Assembly (NCBI RefSeq): GCF_030684315.1
Contig: NC_081364.1
Location: 27,772,989-27,836,988 of the forward strand
Source of the DNA: Stegostoma tigrinum
Lineage: Eukaryota
Reading direction: 5' to 3'
Length of the DNA stretch: 64,000 nucleotides
Shown: piece by piece, positions 11,515 through 56,115 of the stretch
How positions within the stretch are numbered: the stretch's first letter is position 1
Layout of the letters: the number at the start of each line of letters is the position of its first letter
The notes under the pieces: generated by a model
Told to the model about the DNA's origin: nothing
What the model saw: the letters and a program-made list of their open reading frames with translations, nothing else
Database searches by the model: none
Made by a program: the position numbers and the translations under genes

Positions 11515-14500
11515 TGAAACAGAAGAGTATGTAGATTTTATTTTTAACAGTTTTAAAACACATTCTATACAGGTTATTTACTTTATTGACAATGTACACA
11601 ATAATAGTAGCTAAAATAAAAATGTAAGAAGTGTTTCTGTTGTAATTCATAGTGCAGTGGAACTTATAAAAATTGAATACAAAACATGATCTATGGTGCA
11701 AAGTATAAAGTGGCTATTACTAATCTATCCTTTATCAGCCAGTTTGTTTTCCTACTGTATTACACAGTAACAAACAGTATACTTTAACAACTTCAGAAGA
11801 AAGCTTTTTTTCTTTTTAATCCCCATTTCCAGTTTATTGTATATTATGCCATATGGAAACAGATCTAATATAAATACAAAAAAAAACTTGTGAGAAATCA
11901 GTTAACATTAGAGTGCTGCTTGGCATGGATTTCTTTCTCAATATGTGGGTAAATTACATAAATGATTTCAGGTTTTTTGTCAAAAGCAACCAAATATATA
12001 ACCAAGTATAATCAGCTGCTGTCAGCAGCTATATAGATGGTCAAATTTGCAGTTTTGTATTTTAGGTTGCATTACTAAAGTGTAATTCAATACACACACA
12101 TTTCAGTTAAACAATACTTCTTCATTTCAGCTTGCATGAACTGAATTAAAATAATCAGTTTATCTATATATTACTCCTTTTAATTAATTCACCTCCTACT
12201 GTGTAGTCTGTGTGTATTAATTGAACATTTACAATTATCATCACACTATTTTTGCAATTATCAAGGCAAGGGAAGCTAATGTTATGAAATTGAATATTTT
12301 TAAAGCTCTCACCATTCTGTCCCAACATTAATATAGCACACTGCACCAGTGTGAAGTTTCTATTTCCCACACCAGCTGTTGTGTCATGCTGGCATATTAA
12401 GAAGTGCTGTTCTGTAAGTGTGGCAAGTGGCCTACCAGCATAAAATGAAGGACTCTTTTTTTTGCTGTGCGCCTACATCGTCTATGAATTAGGTTGCAAT
12501 TTCCCAAGCATATTTCACATAGGACCATTACAGCTGACATATATTTCCTTCAACGTAGGCTGAACTTAAGTGATGAAAGACCTGTGTGTCTAACCTACTT
12601 CACCACAAAATCTCATTCCTAACAACTTTCTACACTGATACACACACCATCATTTTGAATTTAGGTGGCTTTGATTTCTGGAGGTCAGTTCAAACTTCAG
12701 CACCACAACTTTCACTCCAAAAACTGTCTCCTAGCATTTCTGATAAATGCAATTTATTAAATCATAATGCCCCTCTTTCTAGGGCCATGAGTGATACTTG
12801 GTAACATAAATACTTTATTTTCTTAATAAGCTACAAAGGATTTTATAATAAAGTTGCAGTATGTTCAGACATTAAAAAGACTAACTTGACTTGAGTCTGA
12901 AAAGCTTTAAGCATCAATACGATACACATTGCAGCTTTAAAACTGTTAAAAATGTTGAGATGATTAATATATATTTCATGTCTTTTACTAAAAGCATTCA
13001 GACTTCTGTTTTAAAATTGAAAGGTGTATTTATCAAAAACAATGTCAGGTATCCAAGAAAATCCATATACAAGATATTGAGAGACTCAAAAGGTGCACTG
13101 ACGGCTGGAACCTATTTTACTTTATTCCTGAGGTTCACTGTTAATTTTAACTGCAGCCTTTCTCACTCAATGTTTCATTCATTGATACAAATTTCTTTGA
13201 GAGCATTTTTTCTACAACATAAAGAGATACCATTATAGCTGATGATTTGGATGTGCAGCATAAAAAGATAATGAATGTTAAAATAACACATAAAAATCAA
13301 AATAGTTAACAGACATATGACCAAAATAAACTAAATGCTATTTTAAGCTTTAAGCAACTTCCATACAGAAACTATGTCTTAAAAATAAAGATTGTATAAA
13401 ATAAAGTCAATATAGCTTTAACTCAAATAGACCAGGTAAAAAGGAATGGCTTTCATAAAGAACTACCTAATTACCAATCTAAATTATAAATATACATAGA
13501 AGAAAAGCATAGGTTGTATGGCAGGATTGTAACACCACGTAAAAGGCAAAAAAATCATGTAACTTTGTATCACCGATGATTTAGAGAAAAAAAAGACCCT
13601 TTAGGACTATTTTTATGTAACAAAGTCAAGAAAAAACAGACATCACAAGTAGTTGAAAAATTTAAAAAAAAATGTGTAAGAAATGTACAAATATAAAAAG
13701 CTACAAATATTAATAAATTACAGATAAGTCACATAGACATAAACATCACCAGTTAAGACCAAAAATACTTCATATTGCATTATAATGCAAAATTGAAAAT
13801 AATAAGCTCATATAGAACAAAACTGTAACCTTATTTACAAAGCTCCTCTATAATGTGTTACCTTTGCTAATGTACTATGACTACTTACAAGAGAGTATTT
13901 TTGCAAGGCCACACAAAGTAATGTCTTTGTTTTTCAGGCAATGCCTACTATAAAAAAATAAGTTCCATTATAAGAGCAAACAAAAAAGAAGCAACATTTT
14001 TATCATAAAAGATGAAAATGTAAAAAAGGTAAAAATCAATGGATATATAGGGTTGTAACTCAAAGATAATTTGCAATAAAGATTAATCTTTGACCATATT
14101 TACAGGATTTATAGTATGAAAAACATTTTAAATGTTCCTTTAAATCTGAAATGTGGAATTGCCTGAGAAACAAATTTATAGAAACAGTATCCATTTACTC
14201 AGGTTAAAGGCAGCAGTTTATTACTGTACTCTCTGACAAAGTCTACTGTTCATTTAAGGACAGCCTTTCTTATGAATTTGTTTCTGACATTCTTAAAAAA
14301 AAATGGTAGTATCTCCAAATTCATTTGTTCTTCCACCATCTGTAATTTAATGCTTAGAAGTGCTCCAACAGAAGATTTGGCTGAATTAAGTGGATTACTC
14401 TGACATCTTTGATAGATATCAAATGCCACTAACAAGCATTTGCAATTATGCCACAGACCAAGTGGAGCCAATCTACTAGAGTACCACACAAAAGCACTCT

Positions 14501-14645
14501 CTCGGAGGATGGTCTGTAGATACATTTGAAATGGACACTGTCTCTAACTCGGAATGATCTAAAATGTGTTAACATTATGTCACACATGTAACGGCATTAG
14601 TGTCAGGCCAATACATTTAACTGAAAATATTTCTCATTTCTAACT
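11515..14645 (-). other. PHF2: Probable PHF2 3'UTR (~1.85 kb or ~3.1 kb)
   Basis: AU-rich stretch with no repeats I recognise. Minus-strand AATAAA at 12814-12819, 11582-11587 and 11537-11542, the last followed by a U-rich tract. Pumilio-type TGTAAATA at 14097-14104 and 13832-13839. Confidence 0.6.
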
Positions 14646-14734
14646 TTACAGTAGAAGTTTTCCATTCCTATGTATTTTTAGTATTTTTCCAAGTCTTTGC
14701 TTAGCAGTTGCCATACCCTTCTTTAATCGTTTTC
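14646..14734 (-). CDS. PHF2: PHF2 terminal coding exon: (G)[28 protein letters not shown]
   Basis: 89 nt after ttttcag, with TAA at 14646-14648. The C-terminus is essentially identical to PHF2 (GMATAK and LGKILK, where PHF8 has GLATAK and LGRILK). Confidence 0.97.
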
Positions 14735-14869
14735 CTGAAAAATAAAACAAGAAATTACTGTGTTTGACATACAAATGCCCTTAATGCAAATGAAGATTTG
14801 TTCTACATCTACAGCCATCTACCTGATTTTAAAATTATGAACAAACTTAAGTAAGCACATATTCGGTAA

Positions 14870-15064
14870 AGATGTAGGGCTGGATGAACGCAGCAGACCA
14901 AGCAGCAGCAGAGGAGCAGGAAGGCCGACTTTTCGGGCCTAGACCCTTCTTCAGAAAAGGGTCTCAGTCCAAAACGTTGGCCTTCCTGCTCGGCCTGCTG
15001 TGTTCATCCAGCTCTACGCCTTGTTGTCTCAGATTCTCCAGCATCTGCAGTTCCTACTATCTCC
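14870..15064. mobile_element. Penelope-derived fold-back insertion
   Basis: Inverted arms gctggatgaac.cagcag / ctgctgtgttcatccagc. Flanks atattcggtaaa / atattctgtaaa. Confidence 0.78.
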
Positions 15065-16186: not shown

Positions 16187-16399
16187 GAAAAAAATTACAA
16201 TTTTTTCTCATATGCCAGTTCACTTATAGCAATTGCAAAAAGATCAAAAGGTACTAAATTATATTTCTAAAGCTCTAAATTATATTTCTTGCTTGTGCCT
16301 GAATGCACATTTGAGGTATTTTCTCCTTCCACAACAGTGGAAACAGGCTGAATGCTTCTGCAGGCAAACGCTGATAAAACTAGTGCTGTAGACTTTTAA

Positions 16400-16602
16400 G
16401 ATAACAAGGTGTACAGTTGGATGAACACAGCAGGCCAAGCAGCATCAGAGGAGCAGGAAGGCTGGCATTTCAGACGAGGACCGTTCTTCAGACCCAAAGG
16501 GTCTAGGCCCGAAACATCAGCCTTCCTGCTCGGCCTGCTGTGTTCATCCAGCTCTACACCTTGTTATCTCAGATTCTGCAGCATCTGCAGTTCCTACTAT
16601 CT
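16400..16602. mobile_element. Penelope-derived fold-back insertion
   Basis: Arms gataacaaggtgta...ggatgaacacagcagg and its reverse complement. Flanks tgtagacttttaa / tgtagaatttttaa. Confidence 0.8.
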
Positions 16603-19600: not shown

Positions 19601-21274
19601 TACCACAACAAACTGGAGAATCGAAATGCCTCTGAAACCTGATAAGACATACTTCACAAAAAAAGGGGGAAAAAAAACCATGATATGAAAACTGTTATGC
19701 TCATCACTAAAATCTATTCAGTTAGAAATTGTGTTTTGCTTCTTCAGGATCAGATTTGGGCTGAGAAGATGGAAGGCTCCAGCTGTAAAATCTCCTGACT
19801 CAGCAGACCCGTCTCTATGGAAATGACACTTGCATGCACTGTTTTTTTTGCTCCAGAGGTGACAGCGTGATCGATTTGTGCCTGTTTTCCCCGCAGCAAG
19901 TTCAAAGGCAACTACACAAGAGAGTGAGTGCTGAGGCTAGCTGGTTAGATAGGTGCTTCAGCCTAGTTTACAAATTTGTTAGGCCCTCTAGCCCTTACCT
20001 GTCCATTAACTCAATGCTCATTATGGGCACTAAGGCCAGACCTCAGGAGCACTGCGTATTCTAAGAGAACTCTCATTCAGATATATTTGATCTTGAAAAA
20101 AATCTCTCATTCATGAAACCCACTCAAAGACTTAAATTCTAGGTTGACAATTTGTTACTATAACAAACTTTTTTTCAGTGGTATCAGAAACAGCTAATTG
20201 TGTAACAGCCTTGTAAAACTTTTGATCATAATGTGAACTCAGACCTCCCTTTGCACTCTGCCCCTCCACTGAGAAAAGTGATATTGGAGCTTTTGAAACT
20301 CAGCCAAGCATCCATAATCCTAGCCCTTGAAAAATATCACCAATTAATTCTATTGAAACTGTAGGACAGACAGTAATGTTTAATTCTAAGCTACACCAGA
20401 TGACTTGTCACTGCACCCCAGTACAGTGCGTTTGTTTGCTTACTCTAACTAAAGTCTGCAGTGTGATTGTTAAGTTTAAGGGCTGAGGTTTTAAGTAACT
20501 TCAGGATCATGACAGTCAGACCGGTGTGAACTGCTCTTTTAACAGCATTTACATCTCCTTCGTAAATCTGAGATTCCAACTGATACAGTGAAAATACAAT
20601 CTAATTGAACACCACACTGATTCCAAATGGCCCTACTGAGTTTGGGACCCAGTCTGTGTAAATGATACCCCACCCCTAAACAAGTAAGTAAAAATAACAT
20701 GTGCTAAAAAAAGGGACAAGACTTCTGCATCCAAGTCATTTCTTCTATTTTTAAAGACCAGTGCAGTCAGGTTGACTCCATGGAAGTCTAGCACAAAATG
20801 TTCATGGCCGATGCTGAAAACAGGTAGGCCTATAGATAGATTAAAATCGGGCCTTGGGACTCACTGTACTAAAATTGGAGTTCTATGATTACCACTTACA
20901 TGTACCAAGTCATCTTGTAGATAAAATTAATTTGATTGTTGCAAGTTATAACATTGGTGCTGTCCTCAGAAATGTCTGGGGGAGTCAGGGAGAATGGAAG
21001 ATACAATGCTGTCAGTGGGAGCCCATGTGTGGGTTTGTACTGGGGTCTGATGTATGGATCAGTAGCCAGAAGCATTTCAGAGGGAACTGAGCATGAGCCA
21101 GCAATGGTGCACAGTAGCTCTAAGGAACATGGTTCCGATGAAGTGTTTTCTTAGACTCAAAACATTAACTCTATTTTTCTCCAAAGATGCTGTCAGATAG
21201 ATATCCTCAAGAACTTTCTGTTTTTCTTCAGTTTCTTATCTATCACTTTCTATAGCCTGCTCCAGTAAAGTTGC

Positions 21275-21770
21275 CATTAGCTGCTGAATTACAGAGGTAC
21301 AACCTGTGGTCTTATACGCATCAGGAACACAGCAGGAGACAATAATTGAAACATATAAAATAATCAGAGGGTTAGATAGGGTGGATAGGGAGAGCCTTTT
21401 TCCTAGGATGGTGACAGCGAGCATGAGGGGGCATAGCTTTAAATTGAGGGATGAAAGATATAGGACAGATGTCAGAGGTAGTTTCTTTACTCAGACAGTA
21501 GTAAGGGAATGGAACGCTTTGCCTGCAACAGTAGTAGATTCGCCAACTTTAGGTACATTTAAGTCGTCATTGCATAAGCATATGGACGTACATGGAATAG
21601 TGTAGGTTAGATGGGCTTGAGATCCGTATGACAGGTCGGCACAACATCGAGGGCCGAAGGGCGTGTACTGTGCTGTAATGTTTTATGTTCTATAACTGGG
21701 ACCCACTGCTGAACTGTTCCATAACCAAATGTGCTGGCATCAACAGTACATTCATGATCTACGAAACTAC
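21275..21770 (-). pseudogene. Decayed former 3' half of the PHF2 penultimate exon, interrupted by a CR1 fragment
   Basis: SFVDHECT..F, SQLLSPAVFLMRIRP and NSAAN-G sit in three different frames. They match PHF2/PHF8 SLADHEYT...SQPMAPGVFLTQRRPS...AAKG. The segment ends at G|GCAACT where a GT donor is expected. Confidence 0.75.
21346..21691 (+). mobile_element. 5'-truncated CR1 LINE 3' end inserted in the former PHF2 exon
   Basis: Open ORF2 C-terminus (IETYKIIRGLDRVDRESLFP...FFTQTVVREWNALP...), then 3'UTR and a TATGTTCT tail. ATAA at both junctions (21342-45 and 21692-95). Confidence 0.92.
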
Positions 21771-21885
21771 CTGCATGGCTGTCAGTCTTCATTTCTGTTG
21801 AAGCACTTTCCTCAGGGATTTTGATTGAATCATCCGATGACACCTTCCTCTTGGTATATTTTCTCTTCTGGACTTTCTGTTGCTC
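21771..21885 (-). CDS. PHF2: PHF2 penultimate exon (~exon 21), apparently shortened: EQQKVQKRKYTKRKVSSDDSIKIPEESASTEMKTDSHA(G)
   Basis: Clear tag acceptor at 21886-21887. An internal CAG|GTAGTT donor gives 115 nt ending in phase 1, in frame with the last exon. The 3' boundary is inferred. Confidence 0.7.
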
Positions 21886-22200
21886 CTATGATAAAATGCA
21901 AGAGCATAAATTGTTGTTCTTTACCTATGTAGACACACCCATTTATTCATGTTCAAATCCATAGCAATTAGTCAATAATGTGTTCATGATTTGAGAATTC
22001 CATTTTTAAACTTCTTACAAGTGATAATTATGAAAATAAACACAATCATATTTACCATTAACACTGTACAAACTTTCTCATTTATTTTTAAAACTTCAGC
22101 TGTGTGCTCTGCTTGATTTTTTTTCAGAAGTATATATACCACACAAAAGCATGTCCATGCAGTTATGTATTTTGTTCGTGAAAGCTTTGAAGGAACTCAC

Positions 22201-22310
22201 CTGTTGAGACAACTTTGCAGCAGCTGCAGCTAATCCAGTTTCTATTGAGGCAACCCTTGCCCCTTCTCGTGTTGGCCTGTCATGCCGAGGAACAGATGGT
22301 GTAACTCTGG
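22201..22310 (-). CDS. PHF2: PHF2 coding exon (~exon 20): (A)[36 protein letters not shown]
   Basis: 110 nt, tag acceptor and gtgagt donor. [19 protein letters not shown] is identical to recalled PHF2. Confidence 0.96.
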
Positions 22311-23576
22311 CTAAAGAAATAAAAAAGAAAAACTTTTGAAAATTTAAGAAATATTAAATTGTAATTGCTGCATTCTGTGCATCAGAACATACTGTTAAAT
22401 TATTTATTATTTTAAATCCTTTAACTTGGATAATGACATAATGCCAAATCAAACGTACATTTCATCAAGTATCATTTTTGATTTGTTAGGCAGAAACTTC
22501 AGAAAACAGATAGTAAAGAACGAACATTTTTGCATTCATTTTAAACTGAACTGTTTTCAGTTAATAAGACTGGGATTAAAGATAATATAGAATTTTTGAA
22601 CAATATACATCTATTACATGCGTTCTCTCAGAATGCCAATAAAACATATTTGATTTGGTATGTCAAAATATAATTAAATATGTTCCATAGGTTACATTGG
22701 TCATTTGAAATTTTGAAAATGAGACAGGCAGACAACTCTCTAGAGAAGTTAAAGGGAGGAAGCTATCTATAAAGGTACACTCCTGTAAATCTCCATATCA
22801 ACATCTTGTGTAGTGGTCAATTGTCAGCAATCAATTTGGGCATGGATAATCCCCTAAAGTACATCCACAACACAAAACATGTCGAGTCCTCACAGGAGAA
22901 ATTTTTATTTTTTATTCTTCCATCAGTCCTTATTAAATATTAAGAGAAGGCAAATTAAAGGGAATTAATTTAATGGTAAGATCATGAAAAAGGCGGCTTT
23001 GTTTTCTTCTGAGTTTGTTCAATGACATAATCTGTAAATTATTTTTAAGCTGAGTGCAATTAAATATAATGAAACATATCTTCTTCAAGCCAGATCTGTA
23101 CCAGTCAGATGTAAGGTATGACAACTTTTCATACAGAAATCAAAATTATCATTAATCATTATATCTTTTTATACCATAAATTGTGAAAGACTTTTGTCTG
23201 TACTTTATTTTGCATAGATATTGATGTAGGCTGACATGAGGACTGGTACAATAAGGAATTTGCCATGTGACCTTTCTCACACATTGCTTAAATTACCAAT
23301 GAGATGAAAGTAATAAATAAGAAATAAGTTAGAAATAATCTGGAGGTGTGAAATTCTGAACAATTATATATATAAATGATTATGTACTACATTTTGCCAA
23401 ACTAAATTATTAGCCATACTGTTACAATACACAGATTGAAAGTGTAGTCCAATCTTGCTTGGTTGAATGGAAAAATAGATAATTTTATTTTCAAACTGAA
23501 TGCATAATGCTAAGAGATTAACAATACTGTTTAAGTGCTTCAAAGGCTACATGTTCCATTTCTGTTGCAAAAGTAC

Positions 23577-33749: not shown

Positions 33750-35389
33750 CTAAAATAAAAGCAAAAGAGTTACATGATTCTGTAAGAGAAGTCAGCTGAA
33801 GAAAAACTAACAAACATACATACCATATTTACAGCTTTGTTTCTGTTATCACTGTCTGCTAGGAATTTGCACAAAATAGTGGAAAATTATACATTTGTGT
33901 ATTAATCCCAAGAGGACCGATAAACTACAACACTCAACTTCAAACCAAACCAAATTATAACCTTATTCCAATAGGGCACTATGAAAAATCTTTTCTTTAC
34001 AACAATTTTATGTTTTTATGTACAAATATTTTATTTTGTTCTTTAGTGTCTTTGCTCACCCTGGTCAACAATATAAAAGCTGAGAACAGCTGGATTGAGT
34101 TTGCCCTTGATTTTCAAAGCATCTCTGTGGGATGGCCCTTTGTTCTGTTTACTATCTCACTGCTGTTTAAAAATGCATCTAAATCTGGGGGCTTCCATTT
34201 CCTGGAGCTCTCAATTTAACTTTATTATGTTTATCTGTTTGCATTTACACATATTATGGGAACAGTCCACTATATTGTAAATTAAGGTTCATATACCACA
34301 CTTGGAAGCAACAAAAATTTAAAATCTAAAAATTCCATATTTTGAAATTTTCTGTACACATGACCAAACCAATTTTCAATCGCGTTTAAACATATAACAG
34401 CATATCTAGCACAAGTTCACATATCTTTGAATCTATTTTCAAGATCTCTTTTGCAAGCCTCAAACGATGCTATAGGACTATCAAAATTTAAATCCTAAGT
34501 AATTTAAAATTAGGGGAATGAAGTGCACAGGCAAAGAGAAAAGTAAAAAGATAGGTTACATGAGTAGAAGAGAGATAAAAATCATAAACCAATCAGGCAG
34601 ATATAAGGATCAAGAACACTACTTAAAAAGTAAATGGAAGCTGATTTAATAAATAATTTTAATTTGAGTTATTTTCAGGGTTACAATTAGAAAATGGGAG
34701 CATTGGACTAAGCATGGCTGCTCATTCAAAGACTCACACAGACACATTGCCATGTGGACTCCTTATCTTTGCAAGTTTCTATTATACTATGAATACCTGC
34801 AGTAACTTAGTCCAACAGTAAGAAAATAAATCTAAATTTTTAAACAAAGCCCCTATGTGCATTTCATATCAAAGCACCGACAATTTACAAAACACAGTGG
34901 AGCTAAAATTGTGGAAATTCCCTGTCTTTGATTGTCAAAACTGAATTGAAACTTACAAATGTAAAATTTAAAAAATGAGGAACTGAATACTTAAGAAATG
35001 AACCAAACATCCCCACATCACTCCTCGCAATCTTACATCCACTAACGTTTTCCACTTTTACAGTAATATGTGCTTTACCATCTGAATTATTTTCTATTTA
35101 ACTGTAATTACCACATCTAGCTCCATGAGGATATCATTTTTACCTGAAATCAGTGATATCACAGTTGGTGACTTTTGCTGCTTTAACAACCTTGCTGCAA
35201 AAAACATATGAAAAGATGTTATCAGATCAAATATTTAGATTAAACAAATAAAAAGTATTAATATAATAAAGGTAAACAACAATGAAGCCCTTAACAATCA
35301 GATCAGCACTTTTTTAAAAAAGACATTAAAATTTACTGGTCAAATGTAACATCATTTCTAAGTTCCATCTTTGAAGCTATGACTCATAC

Positions 35390-55860: not shown

Positions 55861-56115
55861 CTTTCCCCCTTTCTTTGGCACTTCAGTTTTAATTAAAGCC
55901 TCCTTTGTGTGTGCCTCAAGAATGTCAAGGTTTGGAACTAATACTGTACTTTCTTTTTCTTTCTTCCCTTTCTTCTTTCCTCCTTCTTTGGCCCGTGAAA
56001 GTTTCTTTTTTTCTGGCTTTTCAATAGATGCTGCTGGCAGTTTGGCTGGTACAGCAGGACTTTTAGCTGCACTGATAATATCACTCACCTCACTCTCATT
56101 TGTTTTAAGTGCATT
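55861..56115 (-). CDS. PHF2: PHF2 coding exon (~exon 12): NALKTNESEV...KEGGKKKGKK...PNLDILEAHTKEALIKTEVPKKGGK
   Basis: 255 nt, cag acceptor and gtgagt donor. PHF2-specific GGKKKGKK and PNLD.LEAHTKEAL motifs. Inside ORF 55771..56250. Confidence 0.93.

Follow-up and report, generated by a model that had tools for sequence, protein, structure and literature searches.

The second-last coding exon of PHF2 in the zebra shark (Stegostoma tigrinum) has kept its 5' half and lost its 3' half. The lost half, 49 codons long, has decayed: it bears frameshifts of +1 and -2, a LINE of 346 bp and a dead splice donor, and in two relatives the tract is spliced out. I have considerable confidence that this likely came about since a shorter ancestral isoform became constitutive, and a predicted docking motif for HCF1 went with the lost codons.

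The DNA considered here (the window) is a 64-kb stretch whose minus strand carries 15 PHF2 exons. These correspond exactly, apart from one codon split by a junction, to residues 346-996 of the RefSeq zebra shark PHF2, XP_048403875.1 (P0131), which served as the reference protein, and the gene is thus the one named by the first-pass annotation of this DNA. As expected of a PHF2 orthologue, there are PHD, JmjC and JHD regions and a PHF2-type tail, and the top matches are named PHF2. The annotation had counted 13 exons besides the damaged one, all intact; by comparison with XP_048403875.1 there are 14, and intact they are. It had also raised the possibility of a separate, intact PHF2, and genome searches of this assembly found no second copy or retrocopy, only the single locus.

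The coding exon upstream of the damaged one (22201..22310, minus strand) matches residues 893-929 exactly and is spliced to position 21885 in contigs of samples X14, X15, X19 and X20. The damaged exon starts at 21885, after ...CATAG, and its kept half, 115 nt at 21771..21885, matches residues 930-968 exactly. The last exon's coding portion, which includes the stop codon (14646..14734), matches residues 969-996, again exactly; both lie on the minus strand. The frame that opens at 21885 runs for 92 codons, passing into a CR1-like insert and stopping at 21607, much as the first-pass annotation had described.

To see what has become of the 3' half, I used a frameshift-aware alignment to three long-form PHF2 proteins, those of Heptranchias, Callorhinchus and coelacanth. 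Each query produced the same layout: an insertion of 350 nt, a +1 frameshift near 21723 and a -2 frameshift near 21294. The fossil coding sequence consists of a 5' piece (21696..21770), which contains the first shift, and a 3' piece (21275..21341), which contains the second, both on the minus strand. The alignments uphold two earlier claims, that the conserved blocks now lie in different frames and that half of a conserved PHF2 exon has become a fossil, with two frameshifts, an insert and a dead donor. The host DNA without the insert and one copy of ATAA comes to 261 nt, the figure given earlier, as against 262 expected. The HCF1-type motif DHEY is now DHEC (21759-21748), and PGVFL is now PAVFL (21336-21322). 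With 18 residues of the Heptranchias block as query, the locus scores 48, and three other parts of the window (about 30 kb) yield no more than 18, 20 and 26; the similarity of the 3' fossil is above chance. At the ancestral distal donor position (21269..21277, minus strand), which is out of frame with the last exon, there is no GT. The sequence is ATG|GCAACT, in agreement with the G|GCAACT previously read at 21275/21274, and its GC need not be a mutated GT.

Lesions such as these might reflect misassembly or an uncommon allele, or this could be a silent copy with an intact PHF2 elsewhere, and it may be counted in favor of that idea that the two zebra shark DNA samples at hand come from one study, one of them possibly the source of the assembly. 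I find it hardly credible. The contigs from both samples (runs X1 and X2) cover 21150-21370 and 21670-22330 with 0 differences from the assembly and 0 gaps, spanning both insert junctions and both frameshifts and showing no empty-site joint. Furthermore, the +1 shift occurs also in another species (relative B, below), the assembly has a single PHF2 locus, and the gene's other exons in the window are undamaged.

The splice that removes the fossil starts from an internal 5' splice site, CAG|GTAGTT (21765..21773, minus strand, with the boundary at 21771/21770). It is in phase 1 and joins the last exon, at 14734, in frame, as the first-pass annotation had worked out. The site matches the U1 consensus at 7 of 9 positions, and other donors of PHF2 here match at 7-9 (the comparison took in 11 donors of this gene and left out two). 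A 3874-nt contig of X15, from relative B, and a 4736-nt contig of X19, from relative C, both run unbroken through 22200-22312, 21770-21884 and 14300-14733, which amounts to a splice from 21771 to 14734, with one ambiguous G. A contig of X20, from relative C and a third study, ends at the same internal donor. My taking X15, X19 and X20 to be RNA is a guess; I used them because their contigs join exons across introns. The RefSeq model of zebra shark PHF2 uses the same junction. No contig of the zebra shark itself crossed the junction: that of X14 joins the upstream exon and ends at 21776, 5 bases before the donor, and X24 has no piece on the second-last exon among those listed.

The proposed junction from 21771 to 14734 is thus present in spliced contigs of relatives B and C and in the RefSeq model, and for the zebra shark, the presumed use of the internal donor rests on that model together with the relatives. 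The RefSeq protein, in using the short junction, drops 49 residues and keeps the C-terminal tail, just as had been predicted. Among the contig pieces listed, none ends at the distal donor (21275). Another candidate that had been mentioned, G|GTTATG at 21726, is in frame; I rejected it, since it matches the consensus at only 4 of 9 positions and is used by no listed contig piece or protein.

How far the lost half has departed from its coding past was judged from codons where Heptranchias and Callorhinchus agree. In the kept half, 2 of 33 comparable codons have changed (pN 0.025), and in the lost half 17 of 37, with at least 20 changes in 83 sites (pN 0.24), both values depending on protein-level ancestral states and on the chosen placement of the frameshifts. 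Between Heptranchias and coelacanth, it is the lost half that is better conserved (33/48 identities, vs 20/38 in the kept half). Coding constraint has therefore been lost from the 3' half, as witnessed by the gap between these pN values, by two frameshifts and by one insert.

Relative B permits some of the lesions to be put in order. One of its DNA contigs skips exactly 350 nt, that is, its LINE site is empty, and over 21692-22330 the contig is free of gaps, which means that the +1 frameshift is shared. Of the 25 differences over that range, 22 are listed outside the fossil, leaving at most 3 in the 5' fossil, where 7 conserved codons have changed by the alignment to the long forms; most of the decay there therefore predates the split. 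For comparison, the zebra shark and relative B differ at 20-23 of 312 positions (6-7%) in the adjacent intron. The -2 deletion is missing in this DNA contig of relative B (depth 14.7), which has 2 extra bases at 21290, and apparently present in a low-depth contig (2.9) from another sample of relative B, which shows no gap. Relative C, in sample X20, offers only spliced cover of the fossil region.

The insert itself (21346..21691, plus strand, antisense to PHF2) is the 5'-truncated 3' end of a young CR1-like LINE. It is flanked by target-site duplications, ATAA at 21342..21345 on the left and at 21692..21695 on the right (plus strand), delimited by the empty site in relative B, the right copy partly overlapping the element's tail. 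The insert is 96-97% identical to at least 39 other copies listed (from 3884 candidates) and departs from the majority of the family's columns at 9 of 346 positions (2.6%), the 19 best-matching copies doing so at 2-8. Longer copies of the family encode RVT_1. A family with reverse transcriptase, 5' truncation, a tandem tail and a target duplication together mark it as a LINE, and from its tail and C-terminal motif I take the family to be CR1. In its truncated 3' end, short tandem tail and short target duplication it resembles CR1-type insertions in introns; it differs from them in lying within a former coding tract, where it looks causal but is not.

Suppose nonetheless that the loss were recent, the LINE or a donor mutation having broken the exon and a newly made internal donor having rescued splicing. 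This is the history implied by the first-pass annotation, and it is true that the insert interrupts the old frame, with a stop at 21607, and that the old donor position has no GT. It is very improbable all the same. Relative B, with an empty site, shares the +1 frameshift and uses the same donor; chimaera, rays and every other shark compared have the short junction in their annotation. The LINE is a late passenger, younger than the decay, because relative B is without it yet has the frameshift. A transposon found inside the dead half of an exon is not necessarily the cause of death.

The age of the two splice forms may be gauged from annotated proteins. Among 64 chondrichthyan PHF2 records (two cluster members excluded), 49 have the short junction, 10 are long, and 5 are without the tail. 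The short junction is annotated in all 22 named chondrichthyan species, including chimaera, and the long form in two of them, Heptranchias (3 long, 2 short) and Callorhinchus (7 long, 3 short). The long and short forms differ by exactly 49 residues (1042/993 and 1028/979 in Heptranchias, 1012/963 in Callorhinchus). In bony vertebrates the 49-residue block is present in 79 of the 79 PHF2 proteins with a complete tail, and none has the short junction, a count that leaves out 33 records, incomplete or differently spliced; four models (P0067, P0078, P0104 and P0118) skip the second-last and neighboring exons altogether. The supposition that the donor was new, or the switch peculiar to this genome, is not supported by these figures, which have the donor in use in all 22 species, outgroups included.

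At the level of annotation, then, an alternatively spliced intermediate exists in Heptranchias and Callorhinchus, the two-isoform state in both being known from gene models. By parsimony, two donors would already have been present in the ancestor that chimaeras share with elasmobranchs, more than 400 million years ago. With the usual tree, the short-only state of rays, galeomorphs and a sawshark, next to a two-form Heptranchias, would imply two or three separate losses, if annotation reflects DNA. The absence of the long form in the 19 other short-only species is known from annotation, many of them having one record.

It may be that rays and most other sharks still make the long form as a rare isoform, missed by annotation, and that its true loss is confined to the lineage of the zebra shark and relative B. 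The view at the level of DNA extends just to these two, 10 of the 20 short-only species have a single record, and my search for further long forms with the 49-residue block was insensitive, since its 50 candidates missed the known long forms of chimaera. I consider this unlikely, for Heterodontus, Carcharodon, Cetorhinus, Pristis and C. punctatum have 4-5 isoform models each and none long, while in Heptranchias 3 of 5 models are long. Moreover, the decay (0.24) is several times the divergence between the zebra shark and relative B, and the loss is therefore much older than their split.

The history I favor is a likely shift from alternative to constitutive use of an internal 5' splice site, followed by decay of the half of the exon that splicing now skipped. 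It would begin with an ancestral exon of 262 nt carrying the DHEY...PGVFL block, as comparison with hagfish, PHF8 and bony-vertebrate PHF2 indicates. In stem cartilaginous fish, by parsimony, an internal donor 147 nt upstream would have allowed two in-frame isoforms. In the zebra shark lineage the long form would have ceased to be selected early, probably well before the split from relative B, and the decay is its visible outcome. The +1 frameshift preceded that split and the LINE followed it as a passenger. The resulting protein keeps PHD, JmjC, JHD, YEY and the basic tail and has no D/E/N/Q-H-x-Y motif.

The order might be reversed at the start: a mutation of the distal donor could have forced use of the internal one, coding decay coming after, so that the trigger was one cis mutation fixed by drift. 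Though I think it the lesser prospect, it has a real chance of being right. In a chimaera model (P0011), read-through of the distal donor gives G-K-F-E-R-A-G, where the window has G-N-F-T-G-A-G, and this would imply an ancestral donor like AAG|GYAAGT, from which the present ATG|GCAACT differs at -2 and +5. From the same read-through, the ancestral distal donor may already have been GC. Against donor death as the trigger, rays and sawshark are repeated instances of the short-only state, and a separate donor mutation would be required for each. The two accounts are compatible in their end state and differ in the trigger; on the favored one, the need for the long form would have faded gradually.

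What was lost with the long form? Three human PHF2 isoforms contain a single D/E/N/Q-H-x-Y motif, DHEY, and the same is true of the proteins of coelacanth, crocodile and frog and of the long forms of Heptranchias and chimaera. Short chondrichthyan PHF2 has such a motif in 0 of 11 tested; XP_048403875.1 is without a D/E-H-x-Y motif, and the fossil DHEC is non-coding. PGVF[LV] is similarly the only PxVxL-like motif in the same human, crocodile, frog, coelacanth and long chondrichthyan proteins. PxVxL is a motif that binds the chromoshadow domain of HP1, and PGVFL is, as a pattern match, a putative HP1-binding motif. Among the publications listed, one mentions PHF2 together with PxVxL, and its subject is ASXL proteins. 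The available text of one article names HP1BP3 and SUV39H1 as partners (PMC11315909).

Human D/E-H-x-Y peptides have been screened against HCF1's Kelch domain, and the accessible part of that preprint (bioRxiv 10.64898/2026.03.19.712392) counts PHF2 as one of 41 new binders, regards PHF8 as an HCF1 binder already known, and reports that no substitution of the anchor tyrosine was tolerated in four other peptides. Judging from the uniqueness of the motif, the PHF2 peptide of the preprint would be this DHEY, and short PHF2 is predicted to have lost direct binding to HCF1. The cohesin-binding motif of PHF2, YEY (according to the portion of PMC11790891 at hand), is kept in the zebra shark. In teleost PHF2 the motif reads DHEF in cichlids and NHEY in salmonids, with PGVFL kept (P0178, P0326, P0181, P0329, P0330 and P0333). 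It has therefore eroded in PHF2 elsewhere too, which suggests tolerance of its loss through redundancy rather than an adaptation specific to sharks.

The paralogue PHF8 has both motifs, DHEY-type and PGVFL-type, in all 119 of the sequences listed, in keeping with the earlier statement that the blocks match PHF2/PHF8. It keeps the block in white shark, sawfish, sawshark, skate and chimaera, and in the four elasmobranchs for which annotation covers both genes, the block gone from PHF2 is still present in PHF8. The DHEY...PGVFL block is found also in a hagfish protein. It is thus coding in the long forms of Heptranchias, chimaera and coelacanth, in PHF8 and in hagfish, and, judging from these proteins, is older than the duplication that gave PHF2 and PHF8. 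The loss from PHF2 was probably tolerated because PHF8 keeps the block, although such cover rests on other chondrichthyans, no PHF8 having been found in the zebra shark assembly by repeated searches. None from a carpet shark or catshark was named among the 120 best matches of the PHF8 search. Either an assembly gap or a lineage loss may explain the missing zebra shark gene. That sharks in general lost PHF8 was considered and rejected, as the gene is annotated in five other chondrichthyans. I also rejected as PHF8 a match at C22:421185-505972, which is a KDM7A-like paralogue; its tail resembles those of P0186 and P0194, both without the DHEY block.

The H-x-D/E pair of JmjC domains binds metal. 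In zebra shark PHF2 the pair (C13:27866381-27866575, upstream of the window) is H-I-G and so departs from that pattern. The 21 elasmobranch species compared have H-I-G (14), H-I-A (2) or H-I-D (5, two lamniforms and three skates), and the aspartate of the H-I-D type is kept in the PHF2 of chimaera, coelacanth and human. The distribution suggests that a likely metal ligand was lost repeatedly, or was lost and then regained.

I offer a broader scenario tentatively, as one rather less apt to hold than to fail. Rays, galeomorphs and sawsharks may each have fixed the ancestral shortcut, erasing the HCF1 module, and most elasmobranchs would also have lost the JmjC aspartate. PHF2 would then be a streamlined, non-catalytic, HCF1-independent adaptor between H3K4me3 and cohesin, leaving catalysis and the HCF1 link to PHF8, with the zebra shark perhaps lacking PHF8 as well. 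In PHD, JmjC, JHD, the YEY motif and the C-terminal tail, zebra shark PHF2 is like bony-vertebrate PHF2 (KDM7C), in which, by the available text of PMC11790891, tyrosine likewise replaces the third metal-binding histidine; it is unlike it in missing the 49-residue block and in having H-I-G for H-x-D.

Exon erosion is a known process, and the short junction is already annotated in RefSeq: XP_048403875.1 and the orthologue models of sharks and rays have the same exons and the same junction, and those records are silent on the fossil, its age and the lost motif. Among the matches listed, I found no publication on this PHF2 case in the open-access literature. Intronization by way of an alternative-splicing phase is described, so far as the accessible text of PMC9612004 goes, for short tracts in Paramecium and from genome-wide signatures. 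The present case is like it in that an exonic tract with a length that is a multiple of three has been absorbed into an existing intron, with alternative splicing as intermediate and constraint relaxed afterwards. Here, in contrast to those short tracts, a vertebrate exon has lost 147 nt of its best-conserved part, and all three states (long-only, both and short-only) can be found in living species.

What gives the case its value is that these intermediates survive and that the motif lost can be named, with a functional consequence that can be tested. Bony vertebrates (long only), chimaera and sevengill shark (both) and the zebra shark and a relative (short only, with a legible fossil) make up a near-complete series of exon shrinkage in vertebrates, and the lesions can be ordered in the zebra shark and its relative. 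These sharks amount to a natural deletion mutant by which to ask what purpose is served by the contact of PHF2 with HCF1 and how work is divided between PHF2 and PHF8.

Several features of the window stand apart from the fossil. At 22300-22312, the exon is entered in another frame by four models, from Rhincodon, Mustelus, Pristis and Mobula (P0124, P0145, P0152 and P0158), which end early, and the similarity of their early-ending peptides suggests a conserved alternative acceptor there. A 51-nt exon (17 residues) at 35146-35196 is variably present among isoform models, giving 996 vs 979 residues, and Chiloscyllium and Heptranchias have 4 more codons than the window in the exon at 56115. Finally, a palindromic repeat of about 200 nt occurs in two copies, at 14869-15062 and 16399-16602, with very high read depth in all four runs compared, as is usual for a short interspersed or MITE-like element of high abundance.
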